Shown in pieces: positions 112-37,544 of a stretch of DNA of 64,000 nt. The notes below the pieces were generated by a model. The model was not told where the DNA came from. It did not search any database and saw only the letters and a program-made list of their open reading frames with translations. The stretch covers positions 64,001 to 128,000 of the IMG/VR virus record IMGVR_UViG_3300048997_000130, one strand, 5' to 3'. Position numbers and translations under genes: made by a program. Every line of letters starts with the position of its first letter. Position 1 is the stretch's first letter. Origin of the DNA: a virus.

Positions 112-3100
112 TCAACTGCATCCCGTAGTATTTCCACAGCTACTACATAAATAGCAACTCCCGCATCTGCGAGTAATCGATCCACAATTGTTACAAGGTG
201 GAGCATCAATATTCATCTCATTATTAGGAGATGATGATAATTCAGAAGCCGGGATTGCCGTAGGAGTTATGGACTCCGGAGTAGTAGTTGTATTCCCGTA
301 AGCTTTATCCAAACCAGAATTTTTCCCAGAAAAATAAGTCAAATCGATATATTTAAATATATAGTCATATAGACTATCTGTAAATCGAATCTTAGGATTA
401 CCCGTATATCCAGATGGTTCAAATTTCGTATTTACGAAACAACGCACCAATTTTTCGAGTGGAACCCCGTGCTGAATAGAAATACTAAGAAGTTTAGTAA
501 AACTATCCACCAAACCACCCATGGTGGACCCAATTTTCCCTAATCGCACAAATACTTCGCCGGGAGATCCGTCATCATATTCACCAACAATAATATACCC
601 AGTATGTCCTGCTATATTAAATTTATGACGCCGACTATGTGAATCTATAGGCATTTTGCGTCTATCTGTCACACGGACTTCTCGTATGACTTCCCGAACA
701 GTTTCCTTAATGCCTGATCCGGATTCCTCTGAAAAACGATTTTTAGTCTTTAGAGGTTGTGATTTCTTGCATCCGTCTCTATATAAAGCTATACATTTGA
801 GACCGAGTTCCCAACCGATTTTATATAAATCTGCAATTTCTTCCGGAGAAGCTGTTGTTGGTAAATTTACAGTCTTGCTTTGAGCACATGTAATGAGCGG
901 CTGAATAGCCGCCATCATTTTTAAATGCCCAAGCGGAGGAACGCAACGACCTGATGGTCCGGAAGCCATAGCACAATCAAATATCGGTAAATGTTCTGAT
1001 AGAAGTCCTGGAGCACCTTCAATGAATGAATTTTCCTCTAGATATTCACAAATCCCTTGAATAACCGGCTCTGAATATCCAAGATTGACGAGTGCGGCCT
1101 TCACAGACCCATTCACAAGTTTCATAACACCGCCACCAACAAGCGATTTATATGAAACTAAAGCAAATGCTGGTTCAATCCCTGTCGTATTCATCCCCAT
1201 AAGGAATGAAATCGTATTATGCGACACGAATCCATTGGCAATATATGTAACATTCCCAGGGACTGATATATCATAAGTAAGTTGACGGCCTTGCGATTCC
1301 ACCGTAGTAATTTCATCGTAATAAAAAGAAAGCGCATGTTGCAATCGACCAGCAAAATCAGGAATAAACTTTTCAGCAATATGCCTTGGAATCCGACCAT
1401 CAATATATCTCATTGTAGCGATTTTGCGAAAATCATGACCTATCGGACACACTTCATTAAATAATTCTTCATCAAGATAAATATAATCTCGAGCCCATTC
1501 AGTTTTCCCAAGCACTTTATCAGCCTTACGCGAACATGTAAAACCAACACGTTCCATGAACACACTAGTGAAGTTCCGAGATGTTACCGTTAAACGATAA
1601 ACAGGTTTATCACTATAACCGCCCGTCTGTATATCAAATCTTGTTGGAATCCCAACAGCCAATAACATAGTTTGCACATCACGAATGAAAGCTTCTGATT
1701 TGTTCGTGAGAGATGGTAATCCGTTGGTTACCGAACCATCACAAGTGAATAAACCTCGCAAATAAGCCCCGTATGCTCGCTTATCATTTGTAGCAAGAAT
1801 CGCATCGGGAACATGAGCTTCGAGATGGTCTATTACTTCGATTTTTGCAAATCCAGAAATTGACCACCAAGTTTTGATTTGTGTAGAATTCAAACATAAT
1901 GATATACAGTTATCAGCTGACGTAATAGTTGGATCTTTTCCGAAAAGCTCACGAATGAATCCAGCGCAACGCTCGCGCGCGTCACAATCTTGAGCGTCGA
2001 ATGCAAATCGTAGGCCTTTATGATGCGTCGAACCGTTGGCCGCAAATAATCCACACAATTCCGCCAAACGAATATCGACAATGTTTGGAATTCTAACGCC
2101 TCTATCATAATTCGGGACTAGAGAAGCAGGTAATTTCGGTAACGAAATTTGACGACTCTCGCCGAACAGTTGATTCATACTCAACGGAACAACATCTCCT
2201 TCTTTCAAAGCATCAAAACGGCGCCATTCCCATTGTCCATTCACAATAACTTTGATTTGATGCTTTGGGGTCCCGCGAAGTTGGAATCCACGATCAGTAG
2301 TCACGCCAATAATATCATCTTCACCATTTACATAAAATTGTGTAGCTTGACGTGGTCCAGCATCTGTTTGAACCATGAATTCTACATCTTGCCATTTTTC
2401 ACCATCAGGATTCCCGAGATCTTCAATTCGAATAAGTCCAAGATCTGTTGCGATAAGCGAACCTGCGATAAGGCATCCGAGTGGGGCCTGCAGACTAGCT
2501 TGTGATATACTGAATCCATGGCGCTCACCGAGTTTAATTACTTCTTCCCAAACACTATCCGATAAAGCGCAAACATCATCACCCAATGGATCAAAAGTCC
2601 CTAAATTCCAGCGTTTAGAAATATTCCGGTTGGCTTCTCGATGCATATGCATAATATTCAACATTGCATCGCGATTTTTTTCAAATTCCGAAAATGCAGC
2701 CGTCCGAGCAGCTAATTTGGCTGACCATAAATAAGCATAACCAGTCATGAGACTTGCTAACCGAGCAGCAATAGCACGGCCTTCATCCGAATTATAAGCA
2801 TGACCAAGTTGCATGAGCAGCGATCCAAGATCGCCGTAATTGAGACCGATCGGTCTCAATGCCAACGAATTCTTAGTAATAGAGTCTGTCGGATAGTCGG
2901 CTTTGGCAATAATAGCATTTTGCGCGGTCACGAAAACGCGGACCGAATGCATGAATCGCTGCGTATTTAATTTGCCATCATCAAACATTCGAGTCAAATT
3001 GATAGCACATAAATTGCATGCAGTGTTATCGACATGAGCAAATTCAGCACAGGGATTCGTAGCTCGGATCCTCCCACTACTTGGTGTGGTGTGCCAACGA

Positions 3101-14991: not shown

Positions 14992-16335
14992 ATGACGCAT
15001 AGATCAGCCAATATCTTCTGTCTTACCGATTCAGAAGGGAGATTATTATCTCCAGCTGTACAAGCTACTGTACTAGCAAAATATTCAAGATCCCCATTAT
15101 CAGCTCAAGAATTACTTGCGCAGTTAACTGAAGAAGAAGCTGATAAATTCCAAAGCAAATGGGTTGTTGGATATGGTCATGACTCCGTTGCAGAATTGGC
15201 AACAATACCAATATGTTTAGAAGGTGTATCTATCATAGCTTCCAAGATTCTAGAGTCTTGGCCGCGCGCGGCTTATTCTGAAAAAAGCACTCGATATCAA
15301 ATTTTTTCGAAGGATTCGTTTGTTACGCCTCCTGGCGCTCCTGATACAATGAAACAGTTCGCCGGACGATTTTACGAAGCTTATGCTGCATTAAATGTTC
15401 GAATGATTCGTAAAATCGCCGAACTTGTAGGTGATGATCCGGAAAATCCTAAAACAACTACTAAGGCACGAGCGTTCGATAACGTCCGTTATTTGCTGCC
15501 AGCCGGAACTGGCACTAACGTGGCTGCTGCAATGAACTTACGTGACGTGCGCGACATGATAACAACGTTGCGCGGTCATACCAATAGTGAATTCAAAGCC
15601 ATTGGTGAAGGAGTTTATACTGCTGCCATGAGGATGGCTCCGGCACTCATCAAATATACTGAACCCGATACTTTTTCATTACCAGTTAAAAGCTTAGGAG
15701 CAATAAACTCGGCATTCTCATATGAACATCCACAGCCGTGCGTCAATATTTATAATTCAGAATGCATATCTGATCCTCAAATGGAAATGTCCATTTTTAA
15801 AGCCGCTGTCCAAGATAGACATACTATGAATTGGGAAACATTTAATCAACACATGTTATCTCGACCTTCTCATGCTGGAGTCCCAGATATTTTTAAAACT
15901 ATCAAAATCTCGTTCGAAATTATTATGGATTATGGCGCATTCCGCGATTTACAAAGGCATCGGCGTTGTGATCAATTCACAGAACCCTTCCGATCCGATT
16001 ATGGATATGTGGTCCCTGAAGATATAGTGGGAACCGATTTGGAACCGGATTATCGGTCAGCCATGGAATCTCTATCGTCATATCAAGACGAACGCGTAGT
16101 CCACGATCCGGATTGGTTCCAATATATGATTCCGCTTGGATATTTACATAGATCAATCTTTCAAATGGATTTGAAAGAACTCTATTACATAACTGAACTT
16201 CGTACTAAACCACAGGGACATATTTCGTATAGAAGAATTGCTTATGAAATATATCTGTTAGCACAACAGCGATTCCCGGAGCTTATGCAATGGTGTCGTG
16301 TTGTTAAGCCCGAATCTGTAGGTTTACATACATGA
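14992..16335 (+). CDS. thyX: Flavin-dependent thymidylate synthase-like protein, tandem two-domain ThyX form
   Basis: AKYSRS, GYGHDSVAELA, EKSTRYQ, RYLLP, DYGAFRDLQRHR, ELRT..QGH.SYR; start moved to MTHRSA. Confidence 0.85.
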   Translation: MTHRSANIFCLTDSEGRLLSPAVQATVLAKYSRSPLSAQELLAQLTEEEADKFQSKWVVGYGHDSVAELATIPICLEGVSIIASKILESWPRAAYSEKSTRYQIFSKDSFVTPPGAPDTMKQFAGRFYEAYAALNVRMIRKIAELVGDDPENPKTTTKARAFDNVRYLLPAGTGTNVAAAMNLRDVRDMITTLRGHTNSEFKAIGEGVYTAAMRMAPALIKYTEPDTFSLPVKSLGAINSAFSYEHPQPCVNIYNSECISDPQMEMSIFKAAVQDRHTMNWETFNQHMLSRPSHAGVPDIFKTIKISFEIIMDYGAFRDLQRHRRCDQFTEPFRSDYGYVVPEDIVGTDLEPDYRSAMESLSSYQDERVVHDPDWFQYMIPLGYLHRSIFQMDLKELYYITELRTKPQGHISYRRIAYEIYLLAQQRFPELMQWCRVVKPESVGLHT

Positions 16336-30242: not shown

Positions 30243-30493
30243 ACGGTTTGATACTTTTCAATGTCTTGCGGCGAACAACTTTGTCCAACGCGATGAATGA
30301 TTTGGCGAATGATGCCCGAAACTGGGACGTCAATGTTGGAATTCAAAATGGGAACGTGGTCTGATTTGTGCGAACCGCAAACGGAACAACTGACGTGAAT
30401 GGGGATGCCATGCCTGACATCTCGGATTTCGGAAAGTTCAAACTGGAAAACATGATTTCCAAATTCAGGACGATGGACGACTTCGGATTTCAT
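30221..30493 (-). CDS. Small H/CxxC/C protein with shared C-terminal tag
   Basis: NHVFQ..VSCSVC..QSCS..TVWHIMQS*; start moved to MKSEVV. Confidence 0.7.
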   Translation of the reverse strand: MKSEVVHRPEFGNHVFQFELSEIRDVRHGIPIHVSCSVCGSHKSDHVPILNSNIDVPVSGIIRQIIHRVGQSCSPQDIEKYQTVWHIMQS

Positions 30494-30540
30494 GTTAGGA
30501 CGTGGAAAATCCAAGATTTGGAACGGTACAATGACAAACC

Positions 30541-31347
30541 ATGACAAAAAAGGAAAAACCTCGAGCTTTGGGCCTGACCGCAAGAGACTGCGTCGAAGCG
30601 CTTCGAAAAGCGTTCCCGATGCCCGCTTACGCGCTGTTTGAACAAGTGGGAAATGCGACTGGAGCCCGAACCCAACGCTGGGCAGACGTGCTCATTTTGT
30701 CCATTTGGCCGAGCCGTGGTTTGAACCTTTCCGGATTTGAAATCAAAGTGTTTCGGTCGGACTGGAAAAAGGAACTTGCGGAGCCGGCCAAAAGCGAGGC
30801 TGTGCAAAAATTTTGCGACAACTGGTTCGTGGTGGCTCCGCAAGGTTTGATTGAAGCCTCGGAAATGCCTGAATGCTGGGGCTTGCTTGAAGTGACCGAA
30901 AAGCGAAAACTGGTGACTGCGAAACCAGGGCCGACGTTGCAAGCTTGCCCGATGACCAAAGATTTCTTGGCCGCTTTGTTGCGAAGGCAGGCGGAGAGCT
31001 TTGAAGCCGTTGTGGAAAGTCGATGCCGGGAAGCGCGCCAAGCTGGAGAAGAAACCGGGGCGCCCGAAATGGCTCGGAGACTGAACGTTGTGCAAGAAAA
31101 CTTTCAAGAGCTGTCGAACCAAATGACTGAATTTGAACGTGCCAGCGGCGTGGACGTGCGACATGCTTGGGACTGCGGAAAAATTGGGGAAGCCGTGCGC
31201 AAAGTGATGAATGCAGGCTTTCGACAAACGGCTTCGGAAGTGGCTCGAAATGCTATTGCCGAACACCGGCAAATGATTCAAGCGCTGGAATGCGAACTGT
31301 CATACTTGGAGAGCGTTGGCCAAGACAAGACGCCGAGCTTGACGTAA
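30541..31347 (+). CDS. PD-(D/E)XK nuclease-like protein (MmcB-like phage family)
   Basis: RWADVLILSIWPSRG..GFEIKVFRSDW..FCDNWFVVAP..WGLL. Confidence 0.75.
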   Translation: MTKKEKPRALGLTARDCVEALRKAFPMPAYALFEQVGNATGARTQRWADVLILSIWPSRGLNLSGFEIKVFRSDWKKELAEPAKSEAVQKFCDNWFVVAPQGLIEASEMPECWGLLEVTEKRKLVTAKPGPTLQACPMTKDFLAALLRRQAESFEAVVESRCREARQAGEETGAPEMARRLNVVQENFQELSNQMTEFERASGVDVRHAWDCGKIGEAVRKVMNAGFRQTASEVARNAIAEHRQMIQALECELSYLESVGQDKTPSLT

Positions 31348-35351: not shown

Positions 35352-35666
35352 CTACATACGAATCTTGGCTTTGCCGTCTTGGACCGACAGCACGTCCAGG
35401 TGTTTCTCTTCTTTCAGATACCTGTAGAATCTGAAATCTTCCTCGTCCGCATCCCGGCAGTCTTCACGTGAGATGAAACCCAGGTCGGGATGTCCAAACG
35501 TGAGATCCGAAAAAGTCAGTTCGAAGGTGACGATTTTGGACGATTTCTTGGCCATAGGCTTTACGCAATCTCCGTTTTGATGTCCGGCCAGGGAAACTTT
35601 CCCGTGCTCTCGAATCCAACTATAACGATAGCCGCAAAATTTGCAGAATTCGGCAGGGACGGTCAT
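35352..35666 (-). CDS. Hypothetical protein with CxxC
   Basis: FCKFCGY..HQNGDC. Confidence 0.6.
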   Translation of the reverse strand: MTVPAEFCKFCGYRYSWIREHGKVSLAGHQNGDCVKPMAKKSSKIVTFELTFSDLTFGHPDLGFISREDCRDADEEDFRFYRYLKEEKHLDVLSVQDGKAKIRM

Positions 35667-35667
35667 C

Positions 35668-35952
35668 TTAGCCTCGAATCAATTTTTGCTCGGGTTCGAA
35701 AAGAGCAATACGAATTATTGAAGTCAGTTTATCTGCTTGGACTTCTAGGCCGGTTATCGAATTCCAAATCTCTCTATGCTTTGAAGTCCCGAATTTACGC
35801 TTGGACAGGGCCACGTTGAGCTTGCCAATCGTTTGGTAAATGCTCGGGAGTTCATTCAAAGCTGCCCAAGCCTCGTGTTTTAGATTGGAAATCATCGGGT
35901 TTTTCTCGCGTGCGCGCGTCATGCACGTCGCGATTCGCGCGCACAAGGGCAT
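35668..35952 (-). CDS. Hypothetical protein (start uncertain)
   Basis: Helical ORF; likely start MISNLK. Confidence 0.5.
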   Translation of the reverse strand: MPLCARIATCMTRAREKNPMISNLKHEAWAALNELPSIYQTIGKLNVALSKRKFGTSKHREIWNSITGLEVQADKLTSIIRIALFEPEQKLIRG

Positions 35953-36088
35953 TCAAATTGGGATAATTTCAGGAAAATCGGAAGCTCGTCTCTCCGAGCT
36001 GTCACGCCGAACCACAGGTGGCGTTCCCCGCCCGATCCTTTAGAATCGATCAGGTTAACATTTGCTGCTACGAAAGATGGAGGGAAAT

Positions 36089-36253
36089 TTACGAGACCGT
36101 CATGACTTCGTAGCGAACGTTTTTGCGTTCGAGAATGACGGCGTTGGGCCGGACGCCCACGACAACGTAGCCCAGATCCGTGAAATGCGCCAGGCCAATG
36201 GCCCGGTCGAGCACATGCTGGAAAGAACAACTTTTGAGAACTTGAATTTCCAT
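36089..36253 (-). CDS. Unlisted 54-aa protein MEIQVLKSCSF...
   Basis: Own cassette (CGTAAG-N15-TATAGT-..GGAGA) upstream; stop TAA lies inside the next CGTAAA. Confidence 0.65.
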   Translation of the reverse strand: MEIQVLKSCSFQHVLDRAIGLAHFTDLGYVVVGVRPNAVILERKNVRYEVMTVS

Positions 36254-36591: not shown

Positions 36592-37032
36592 TTACACTGT
36601 CCGGATTTGAGGCCGACAATACTGCGCTTTCCCGCCAATGTGCTCAACGAGCCGCACCTGGATTTCCGACCGGCCGTTCAGAATCTGAGCTGCCACACGC
36701 GTATGATTTTGCACATAATAAACGCCATCTTTCACAACCACCAGAGGCAGTTCTTGAGGCGCGTTTTCCGTGTACTTTCTGAGGCCGTCTCGGTATACGT
36801 AGTCTTGCACGGGAACCAGGACGGAAGCTGGAAGCTCGGTTTTAACTGCCAGCTTCAGAAATGCCTTCCTGGAGAACCCGAAAATCACCGGCGTGGAAGC
36901 GTTCTTGAAAATGCTTCCAATATCCACGATGTTCTCGCGTTGGGCGTTGGGTCCAAAGCCTCGCGACACGGTCTCCTCGGGCAAGCTCGGAAGCGCATCA
37001 ATGATGTCCAAAATGTTTTGTCGTGAGTTCAT
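36592..37032 (-). CDS. ParB/Srx-like fold protein (degenerate)
   Basis: LVPVQDYV..LPLVVVKDGVYYVQNHTRVAAQILNG..IQVRLV (DGHHR position reads QNHTR); start behind cassette 37040-37081. Confidence 0.55.
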   Translation of the reverse strand: MNSRQNILDIIDALPSLPEETVSRGFGPNAQRENIVDIGSIFKNASTPVIFGFSRKAFLKLAVKTELPASVLVPVQDYVYRDGLRKYTENAPQELPLVVVKDGVYYVQNHTRVAAQILNGRSEIQVRLVEHIGGKAQYCRPQIRTV

Positions 37033-37083
37033 TTCCCGGGTGCCTCCAGTCCGTTCTAAACCTTGGAGACTCGGATTTACGCG

Positions 37084-37184
37084 TGGACACGACGGGATTC
37101 GAACCCGCGATGACTTGGGAATGTTCATGGACTTGCTCCGGGGAACGCCATGCCCGACCTTTGCCAGTCTGAGGTATCGTGCCC
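37084..37184 (-). ncRNA. tRNA-like module with canonical acceptor, D and T arms but a non-canonical 48-nt middle
   Basis: GGGCACG/CGTGTCC+A, D-stem ACCT/AGGT with TGG in the loop, GCGGG-TTCGAAT-CCCGT; no standard anticodon arm; no encoded CCA. Confidence 0.7.
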
Positions 37185-37192
37185 CCGGCAGC

Positions 37193-37296
37193 CATCACTT
37201 CTCGAAGGACAAGGTCAAATCCGGTGCAAATTAGACAGTTGGGGGTCCATCTAATCGGCTGGTTTTGGATTTGACCTTATCTCTCGAGAAGTGATG
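37193..37296 (-). ncRNA. Long imperfect hairpin 5' of the tRNA-like module
   Basis: 13-bp + 12-bp + 6-bp perfect stems; begins right after an SD-less copy of the promoter (37308-37334). Confidence 0.7.
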
Positions 37297-37340
37297 TCCT
37301 GTCCAATTTTACACTTGGAACCCGGGAATTTACGGAATTT

Positions 37341-37544
37341 TCAATCTTCCAGCGGGCGATTGACGTAGATGAGCGATTCCAAGTGTCGGCTTCCCCGCGC
37401 AAATTCGGCTTTAGCATCCGGCCGACTGATAACAAACGGATCGAATCGCAGCAAGCCCTGAATCAGAATGGCGTTGCCATGGACTTCACTTGTGCAAAGC
37501 GTCTTCCTGACCGACCCACCAATGTTCCAAGTTGCGTCTTTCAT
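37341..37544 (-). CDS. Hypothetical early-type protein
   Basis: Behind cassette 37551-37592. Confidence 0.7.
   Translation of the reverse strand: MKDATWNIGGSVRKTLCTSEVHGNAILIQGLLRFDPFVISRPDAKAEFARGSRHLESLIYVNRPLED

Follow-up and report, generated by a model that had tools for sequence, protein, structure and literature searches.

What does a phage gene array encode at a position where a promoter-like signal is present but no gene follows it? The question was raised by a spacer of 308 nt, which is bounded by the stop codon of a 67-aa gene at 37341 and by the start codon of a 146-aa gene at 37032. The spacer lies in the window, that is, the whole 64,000-nt stretch of DNA analysed here, which corresponded to bases 64001-128000 of a 196,676-bp IMG/VR viral record (G000) judged to be 44% complete. 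This record codes for a PurZ-like synthetase, a ribonucleotide reductase, and a ThyX-like protein. According to ARAGORN, it had six ordinary tRNAs, all located outside the window.

Promoter-like cassettes and the spacer without a gene

Positions 30000-62000 of the window formed a GC-rich island (GC content of about 50% versus about 38% elsewhere) with dense small genes on the minus strand. The minus strand of the island contained 21 CGTAAAT cassettes with a common spacing. Their consensus was CGTAAAT, 14 nt, aTAg, about 10 nt, tGGAGG, and then ATG, and in most of the cassettes an ORF started 32-49 nt downstream of the first motif. We infer that the cassettes act as promoters; when their likeness to sigma-70 promoters was checked, they were not sigma-70-like.

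In many of the cassettes (window 30000-62500, minus strand; e.g., 35248, 45654, and 48502), the spacer was complementary to the downstream Shine-Dalgarno (SD) region. Therefore, a read-through RNA would mask the ribosome site in a hairpin, while an RNA started at the cassette would not. In two cassettes (35952-36093 and 35666-35799, minus strand), the first plausible start codon came only after a leader of about 100-140 nt. The folds of these leaders (36093 and 35799) and of a further long one (51746) were not notably structured.

Within the 308-nt spacer, the following elements were located in the direction of transcription:

37306-37334, minus strand: promoter-like cassette, one of the 21 copies (CGTAAA at 37334-37329, 15 nt, TGTAAAAT at 37313-37306)
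37193-37296, minus strand: hairpin of 104 nt with 41 predicted pairs and an 8-nt C-rich apical loop
37185-37192, minus strand: linker of 8 nt between the hairpin and the module, read from the sequence
37084-37184, minus strand: tRNA-derived module of 101 nt, with a homologue at L014:6485-6588(-)
37053-37081, minus strand: promoter-like cassette of the following gene, a 146-aa orphan (37032-36592)

A sequence-only reading of this DNA had placed a cassette, a hairpin, and a tRNA-shaped module at these coordinates on the minus strand, and all three were indeed present. It had also proposed that the payload of the cassette was non-coding. In agreement with this, the cassette at 37334-37306 was followed by a degenerate SD-like TGGACAGG without a start codon, and no ORF started within 130 nt of it, where most other cassettes had one; the next start, at 136 nt, was spurious. 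The cassette of the 146-aa gene began at 37081, only 3 nt past the discriminator base of the module (37084). The product of that gene had no relatives among 5.8 billion proteins, the flanking proteins of the locus were orphans, and the only other contigs stopped short of the locus. The DNA is present in sequencing run SRR27584573. The best explanation of the 308-nt spacer was an RNA-gene cassette within a phage array of single-gene promoter cassettes.

A stable and oriented hairpin

The predicted fold of the 104-nt hairpin had an energy of -55.6 kcal/mol, compared with a mean of -18.7 kcal/mol for shuffled sequences (z of -11.1), and none of the 200 shuffles was as stable. Read from the plus strand, the same DNA folded 4.4 kcal/mol more weakly (-51.2 kcal/mol), which bore out the earlier claim that the structure favoured the minus orientation. 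The hairpin was the second of 16 inverted repeats in the window (I2), and the repeats ranked near it were located outside the island. No second copy was found in the genome or in the record that carried the homologue of the module (L014, see below), and there was no homologue elsewhere. Neither an intrinsic terminator nor a U-tract was found after the hairpin.

Since a long inverted repeat that folds on both strands might also act as DNA, we considered a cruciform, a recombination site, or an origin-like site accompanied by a chance tRNA fragment. We regard such an element as highly improbable: the minus-strand fold was the better one, the orientation was that of all island genes, and what followed the hairpin was a complete tRNA frame, whose homologue lies within a tRNA array.

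The hairpin and the module had been proposed to form a single RNA of 215 nt. This part of the proposal needs revision because RNase P should cleave at G1 of the module. The hairpin was therefore probably a separate 5' product or leader, and two products of one transcript were more likely than one long RNA. With its long stem and small C-rich loop, the hairpin resembled the YrlB-type partner RNAs, a likeness that was one of resemblance only. The titration of a dsRNA-binding protein, the binding of RNA polymerase, and decoy roles, all proposed for the hairpin or module RNA, are speculative.

A tRNA frame with a remodelled anticodon arm

The 101-nt module contained the following parts:

37184-37178 paired with 37091-37085, minus strand: acceptor stem of 7 bp with G3:U70; discriminator A73 at 37084
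37157-37175, minus strand: D arm with a 4-bp stem and an 11-nt loop containing GG
37117-37155, minus strand: remodelled anticodon arm with a 3-bp GGG/CCC base and CAUGG/CCAUG and GUUC/GAGC helices
37109-37116, minus strand: variable loop of 8 nt
37092-37108, minus strand: T arm with a 5-bp stem and the loop UUCGAAU

All 16 pairs of the acceptor, D, and T stems formed, and the T arm was identical to that of the phage's own tRNA-Asp. The module did not encode CCA. Its fold with the cloverleaf imposed had an energy of -29.9 kcal/mol, versus -32.7 kcal/mol for the free minimum. Between the D and T arms there were 48 nt instead of the usual 23 or so. Under the cloverleaf constraint, the minimum-energy fold of this middle region was an irregular arm of about 13 bp with a CCCG apical tetraloop and a 6-nt internal loop on its 3' side. 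Thus, the module had the 7-bp acceptor stem with a discriminator, the D arm with GG, and the T arm with a UUCRANY loop of canonical tRNAs. On the other hand, it had neither a contiguous 5-bp anticodon stem, nor a 7-nt loop with U33 and a purine at position 37, nor a variable region that was 4-5 nt or a long arm. The tRNA shape with a non-canonical anticodon region described in the sequence-only reading was accordingly confirmed.

Standard detectors did not call the module, as had been expected of an unusual RNA. ARAGORN with default settings reported no tRNA or tmRNA gene in the window, and no Rfam 15 family matched the module at gathering scores. In the E-value mode of Rfam, the best model of the clan was tmRNA with 23.4 bits against a threshold of 47 bits, and this alignment covered the two ends only. 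No Rfam match to 6S RNA was obtained on 36900-37500 even at E-values up to 10.

When introns were allowed, ARAGORN called a tRNA-Phe(GAA) on the module, i(36,22), with a 22-nt insert at 37149-37128 and the loop UUGAACA. The earlier statement that no tRNA could be recovered by removing an insert was thus only partly right. The call was weak: 256 of 1000 shuffles of the 48-nt middle, with the top half kept, also received one. In the restored arm, the 5-bp stem contained a C-U mismatch and position 37 was occupied by C, and the GAA anticodon conflicted with the alanine-type acceptor. Two other readings of the middle region were rejected. A class-II-like tRNA-Ala with the 8-nt loop AUGGCGUU required an 8-9-nt deletion in ARAGORN and was not common to L014. 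A tandem-duplication origin of the insert rested on an internal repeat that was not significant (27 of 300 shuffles scored as well). Moreover, no deletion within the middle of the module restored an alanine anticodon arm.

The call nevertheless raised the prospect that the module decodes, namely, that a protein-based cut-and-rejoin reaction removes about 22 nt (37149-37128) and leaves a GAA tRNA for Phe codons, charged by PheRS and/or, through G3:U70, by AlaRS. No other call was added across the 197 kb at the default threshold when introns were allowed, and the insert was located at the same place as in L014, where the flanks rebuild an Ala(GGC) arm. In both genes, by our own reading, the first base of the insert and that of the 3' part form a pair. 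However, the call was unspecific (25.6% of shuffled middles), the stem mismatch and the C at position 37 were unfavorable, and the anticodon was at odds with the acceptor identity. No genes for RtcB, RNase III, the CCA-adding enzyme, or a TROVE protein were found in the 44%-complete record, and we know of no mechanism in bacteria or phages for the excision of such short hairpin inserts. Overall, we consider decoding by the module rather improbable.

A homologue within the tRNA array of another huge phage

Many tRNA genes of huge phages contain short hairpin inserts. When the D-arm sequence of the module was used as a query, one relevant match was obtained, at L014:6482-6588 (minus strand; record IMGVR_UViG_3300020576_006957). 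It was located on a 37.5-kb fragment of another huge phage with 42 tRNA or tRNA-like genes, inside the tRNA array and 3 nt after a tRNA-Thr. Default ARAGORN missed this gene. With introns allowed, it was called as tRNA-Ala(GGC), with five pairs in the anticodon stem (one being G-U) and CU-GGC-AA as the loop; its insert was a 25-nt hairpin that began where the 5' strand of the stem ended. When the middle region of this gene was shuffled 1000 times, an alanine anticodon was obtained in only 41 cases.

The two genes shared 26 identical nucleotides across the D arm and its flanks, 16 of the 17 positions of the T arm (the single change kept the pair), and a variable loop of the same 8-nt length with six letters in common. 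The GGG/CCC base of the anticodon stem, G3:U70, and A73 were common to both as well. Acceptor pairs 4, 5, and 6 differed on both sides with pairing kept. In the alignment of the two, 97.6% of cells were paired, versus 26-52% when the partners were slid. The inserts themselves were barely alignable. By this homology, the module is a descendant of an insert-bearing tRNA-Ala(GGC) lineage of huge phages. The notion of a wholly new RNA class was thereby abandoned, since the module was a diverged member of this lineage, while the expected covariation in homologues was borne out by the three compensatory acceptor changes in the sole homologue.

The comparison also revealed where the two genes parted. 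In both of them, the anticodon stem's 5' strand was directly followed by a hairpin-forming insert of 22-25 nt. After its removal, L014 had an Ala(GGC) arm with five standard pairs, whereas the window module was left with GAA, C37, and a mismatch. L014 encoded CCA and was part of a tRNA array, whereas the module had no CCA and stood alone behind its own cassette. The module was preceded by the 104-nt hairpin and differed in acceptor pairs 4-6, and L014 had no such hairpin. Like other insert-bearing tRNA genes of huge phages (the Lak type and L014), the module thus had a tRNA frame whose anticodon arm carries a short insert; removal of the insert yielded a canonical arm matching the identity elements in L014 but not in the module. 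The tRNA introns of Lak megaphages have been called 'enigmatic' (Devoto et al. 2019, PMC6784885).

The changes were unevenly distributed. The anticodon arm had changed at 7 of 17 positions, versus 3 of 46 elsewhere outside the acceptor (Fisher p=0.0025), and the anticodon loop alone at 4 of 7 versus the same 3 of 46 (p=0.0036). The phages gave only three weak protein matches to each other (30-57% identity), and the 57% match was the module region read as protein. Judged from these matches, the two phages are only distantly related. A letter-perfect top half in such distant phages points to purifying selection. Given an upper half that was held unchanged and a decoding end that either drifted or was remodelled, a function of the top half only would fit better than neutral decay. 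With two sequences, the lineage under constraint and the lineage under change are not separable, and the covariation rests on three pairs.

These data bear directly on another alternative, in which the module is a decaying relic: an insert-bearing tRNA-Ala(GGC) gene that lost its anticodon arm and went out of use, with the hairpin as an unrelated element that serves the downstream mRNA, for example as a 5' stabiliser or as an RNase III site. The anticodon loop with four of seven positions different from L014, the C-U stem mismatch, and the pyrimidine at position 37 would be expected of such a relic. Another disrupted tRNA gene was present in the genome (G000 194045-194270), and no relative of the window phage showed that the locus was kept. 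However, the top half was intact with all 16 acceptor, D-stem, and T-stem pairs, it had significantly fewer changes than the anticodon arm, and the unit had its own cassette and occupied a gene slot. A relic thus seemed unlikely to us, though it is the alternative that deserves the most weight.

Further homologues were not found. Searches of viral contigs with three patterns (the 5' half; the D arm plus T arm; the variable loop plus T arm) gave none, and the pattern search of genome contigs returned one chance tRNA-Arg only. BLASTN against 50,697 phage records gave either nothing or matches to the T arm only, and a covariance model built from the two sequences detected no third member in five phage records.

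Other tRNA genes of the two phages were also unusual. The array in the L014 record (G001) contained a tRNA-His with a 48-nt insert (30629-30749, minus strand), a 93-nt tRNA-Ile(UAU) (30448-30540, minus strand), and a doubtful 95-nt tRNA-Cys (15605-15699, minus strand), all of which were called only, or oddly, with introns allowed. Outside the window, the tRNA-Lys(CUU) of the window phage (G000:C1:194274-194347, plus strand) also had G3:U70 and A73, the alanine identity pair, whereas the tRNA-Lys(CUU) of the L014 phage did not. The disrupted gene mentioned above (G000:C1:194045-194270, plus strand, also outside the window) was a tRNA frame with an acceptor strand and a D arm at one end and a T arm and acceptor strand at the far end, broken by about 190 nt. 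Within the interruption was a weak tRNA-Lys(UUU), whose T loop was odd, and default ARAGORN made no call there.

Relation to tmRNA, Y RNAs, and RNA-repair operons

The tRNA-like domain of tmRNA (RF00023) shared G3:U70, A73, and the T arm with the module. Unlike tmRNA, the module had a true D stem and lacked a tag reading frame and pseudoknots.

Y RNAs offered another comparison. YrlA is circularly permuted, has a closed acceptor stem and a GNCGAA(N)G motif near its 5' end, and is located within about 4 kb of rsr on the same strand (Chen et al. 2014, PMC4201824; bioRxiv 10.1101/312249). Similar to the module, YrlA and related Y RNAs are tRNA mimics with a D arm, a T arm, and an acceptor-like stem but no anticodon loop, and Y-RNA loci encode a long-hairpin RNA along with the tRNA-like one, an arrangement similar to that of the hairpin and the module. 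In contrast to YrlA, the order of the module was acceptor, D arm, anticodon arm, T arm, and acceptor, and the GNCGAA motif was absent from both the hairpin and the module. No TROVE (Ro60) gene matched in the 196.7-kb record, which, at 44% completeness, leaves room for a distant gene.

The viral collection contained a single copy of a 23-mer covering the T arm and the 3' strand of the acceptor, and 241 million metagenome records contained nine more. Each of the ten loci was in an RNA-repair operon controlled by RtcR, beside rtcR, rsr/Ro60, rtcB, or rtcA. Eight of them (L001-L005 and L008-L010) belonged to one family of RNAs of about 230 nt with normal tRNA order and the 5' strand GGGCA(C/U)G, and L007 was cut off at the contig end. 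The L006 locus (673-698, minus strand) had only the T arm, the 3' acceptor strand, and CCA, with no 5' partner within 260 nt; an rtcA-like gene was located directly downstream of it. Members of the family were located as follows:

L001:2984-3215, minus strand: RNA of about 230 nt
L002:2144-2376: the same family
L003:1785-2008: the same family
L004:1768-1991, minus strand: the same family
L005:1790-2010: the same family
L008:2644-2876: the same family
L009:11252-11483: the same family

These RNAs consisted of a D-like hairpin, a multi-helix insert of about 170 nt, a T arm, an encoded CCA, and an acceptor with G3:U70 and A73. RNAalifold gave 69 pairs, 31 of which had compensatory changes. Several copies were preceded by a sigma-54 promoter, and the neighbours were rsr/Ro60, rtcB, or an SPFH gene. 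The family had no match in Rfam 15, and no description of it was found in the literature searched. It may be an undescribed class of Y RNA that, unlike YrlA, is not permuted. The module was identical to it in the acceptor, the discriminator, and the T arm (33 nt); on the other hand, the insert of about 170 nt, the encoded CCA, and the sigma-54 promoter set the family apart, and the D arms were unrelated.

Viral contigs were also searched for the same acceptor with any T arm. The matches were mostly non-canonical tRNA-like RNAs of 72-106 nt, together with one normal tRNA-Ala(UGC). The phage tRNA-like RNAs shared the acceptor GGGCACG/CGUGUCC-A, and most had no normal anticodon arm. One type had an 8-nt loop (CCUU), and one was similar to the tRNA-like domain of tmRNA. 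The following loci were recorded:

L018:1878-1983, minus strand: phage tRNA-like RNA
L019:2180-2283, minus strand: phage tRNA-like RNA
L020:12932-13019: phage tRNA-like RNA
L022:4323-4418: phage tRNA-like RNA
L026:1576-1656: phage tRNA-like RNA
L028:4327-4404, minus strand: phage tRNA-like RNA
L030:5143-5217, minus strand: phage tRNA-like RNA
L031:324-398, minus strand: phage tRNA-like RNA
L035:2355-2429, minus strand: phage tRNA-like RNA
L039:5426-5503: phage tRNA-like RNA, with a phage Ro60 gene about 700 nt away

The identity of the module to the acceptor and T arm of the Rtc/Rsr-operon RNA was suggestive. It could mean that the module mimics this RNA and, together with the YrlB-like hairpin, binds, diverts, or silences the Ro60/Rtc response of the host to RNA damage, a proposal to which we give a small chance. 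In its more specific form, that of a Y-RNA-like pair aimed at Ro60/Rtc repair, in which the YrlB-like hairpin acts with a module that binds or diverts host Ro60, RtcB, or RtcR, the chance is smaller still. In its favour, the 23-mer was found only in Rtc/Rsr operons across the viral collection and the 241 million metagenome records, a phage RNA with the same acceptor was located near a phage Ro60 gene (L039), and in Salmonella the hairpin-type Y RNA adjoins the tRNA-like one (PMC4201824). However, neither a TROVE gene in the record nor the GNCGAA motif in the hairpin was found, and the same acceptor was used by the normal tRNA-Ala(UGC). As the L014 acceptor was different, what remained of the identity was a common T arm and three base pairs, and the probability of a chance coincidence was estimated at about 1 in 100 to 1 in 400. 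Since the L014 acceptor differed and complete phages with this acceptor type lacked Ro60, we did not adopt the Ro60/Rtc system as the main explanation.

A putative non-decoding RNA of the alanine type

The reading we prefer, with a confidence that stops somewhat short of even, is that the module is a processed, non-decoding, alanine-type tRNA-like RNA. As read from the sequence, the upper half of the tRNA is kept (the acceptor with G3:U70 and A73, the D arm, and the T arm), and the anticodon arm is without an alanine anticodon. A stable, oriented structure in a gene slot without an ORF spoke for such an RNA. On the other hand, L014 looked like a usable tRNA-Ala after removal of its insert, so that the whole family may be spliced tRNAs, and a recently inactivated gene could look alike if the L014 lineage carries most of the constraint.

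Under the preferred reading of a non-decoding RNA, transcription would start a few bases upstream of the 104-nt hairpin. RNase P would then cut at G1 of the module and free the hairpin as a separate 5' product. The 3' end of the module would be trimmed just before the next cassette, and CCA would be added. The resulting product of about 104 nt would work via the top half of the tRNA rather than as a decoder. Its possible partners, for which it could serve as a substrate or a sink, include AlaRS, EF-Tu, modification or repair enzymes, and tRNA-sensing defences.

The two huge phages provided a contrasting pair: L014 still looks like a usable tRNA-Ala after insert removal, whereas the window copy keeps the upper half only and has its own promoter cassette of the early type. 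If the window RNA is made and stable, then the phage would maintain the top half of an alanine-type tRNA for a non-decoding job. This would, if true, bear on tRNA-targeting defences, on the biology of AlaRS, and on the Ro60/Rtc RNA-repair system. The conserved, tRNA-ordered RNA of the Rtc/Rsr operons and the non-canonical phage RNAs that carry its acceptor may be the more valuable lead.
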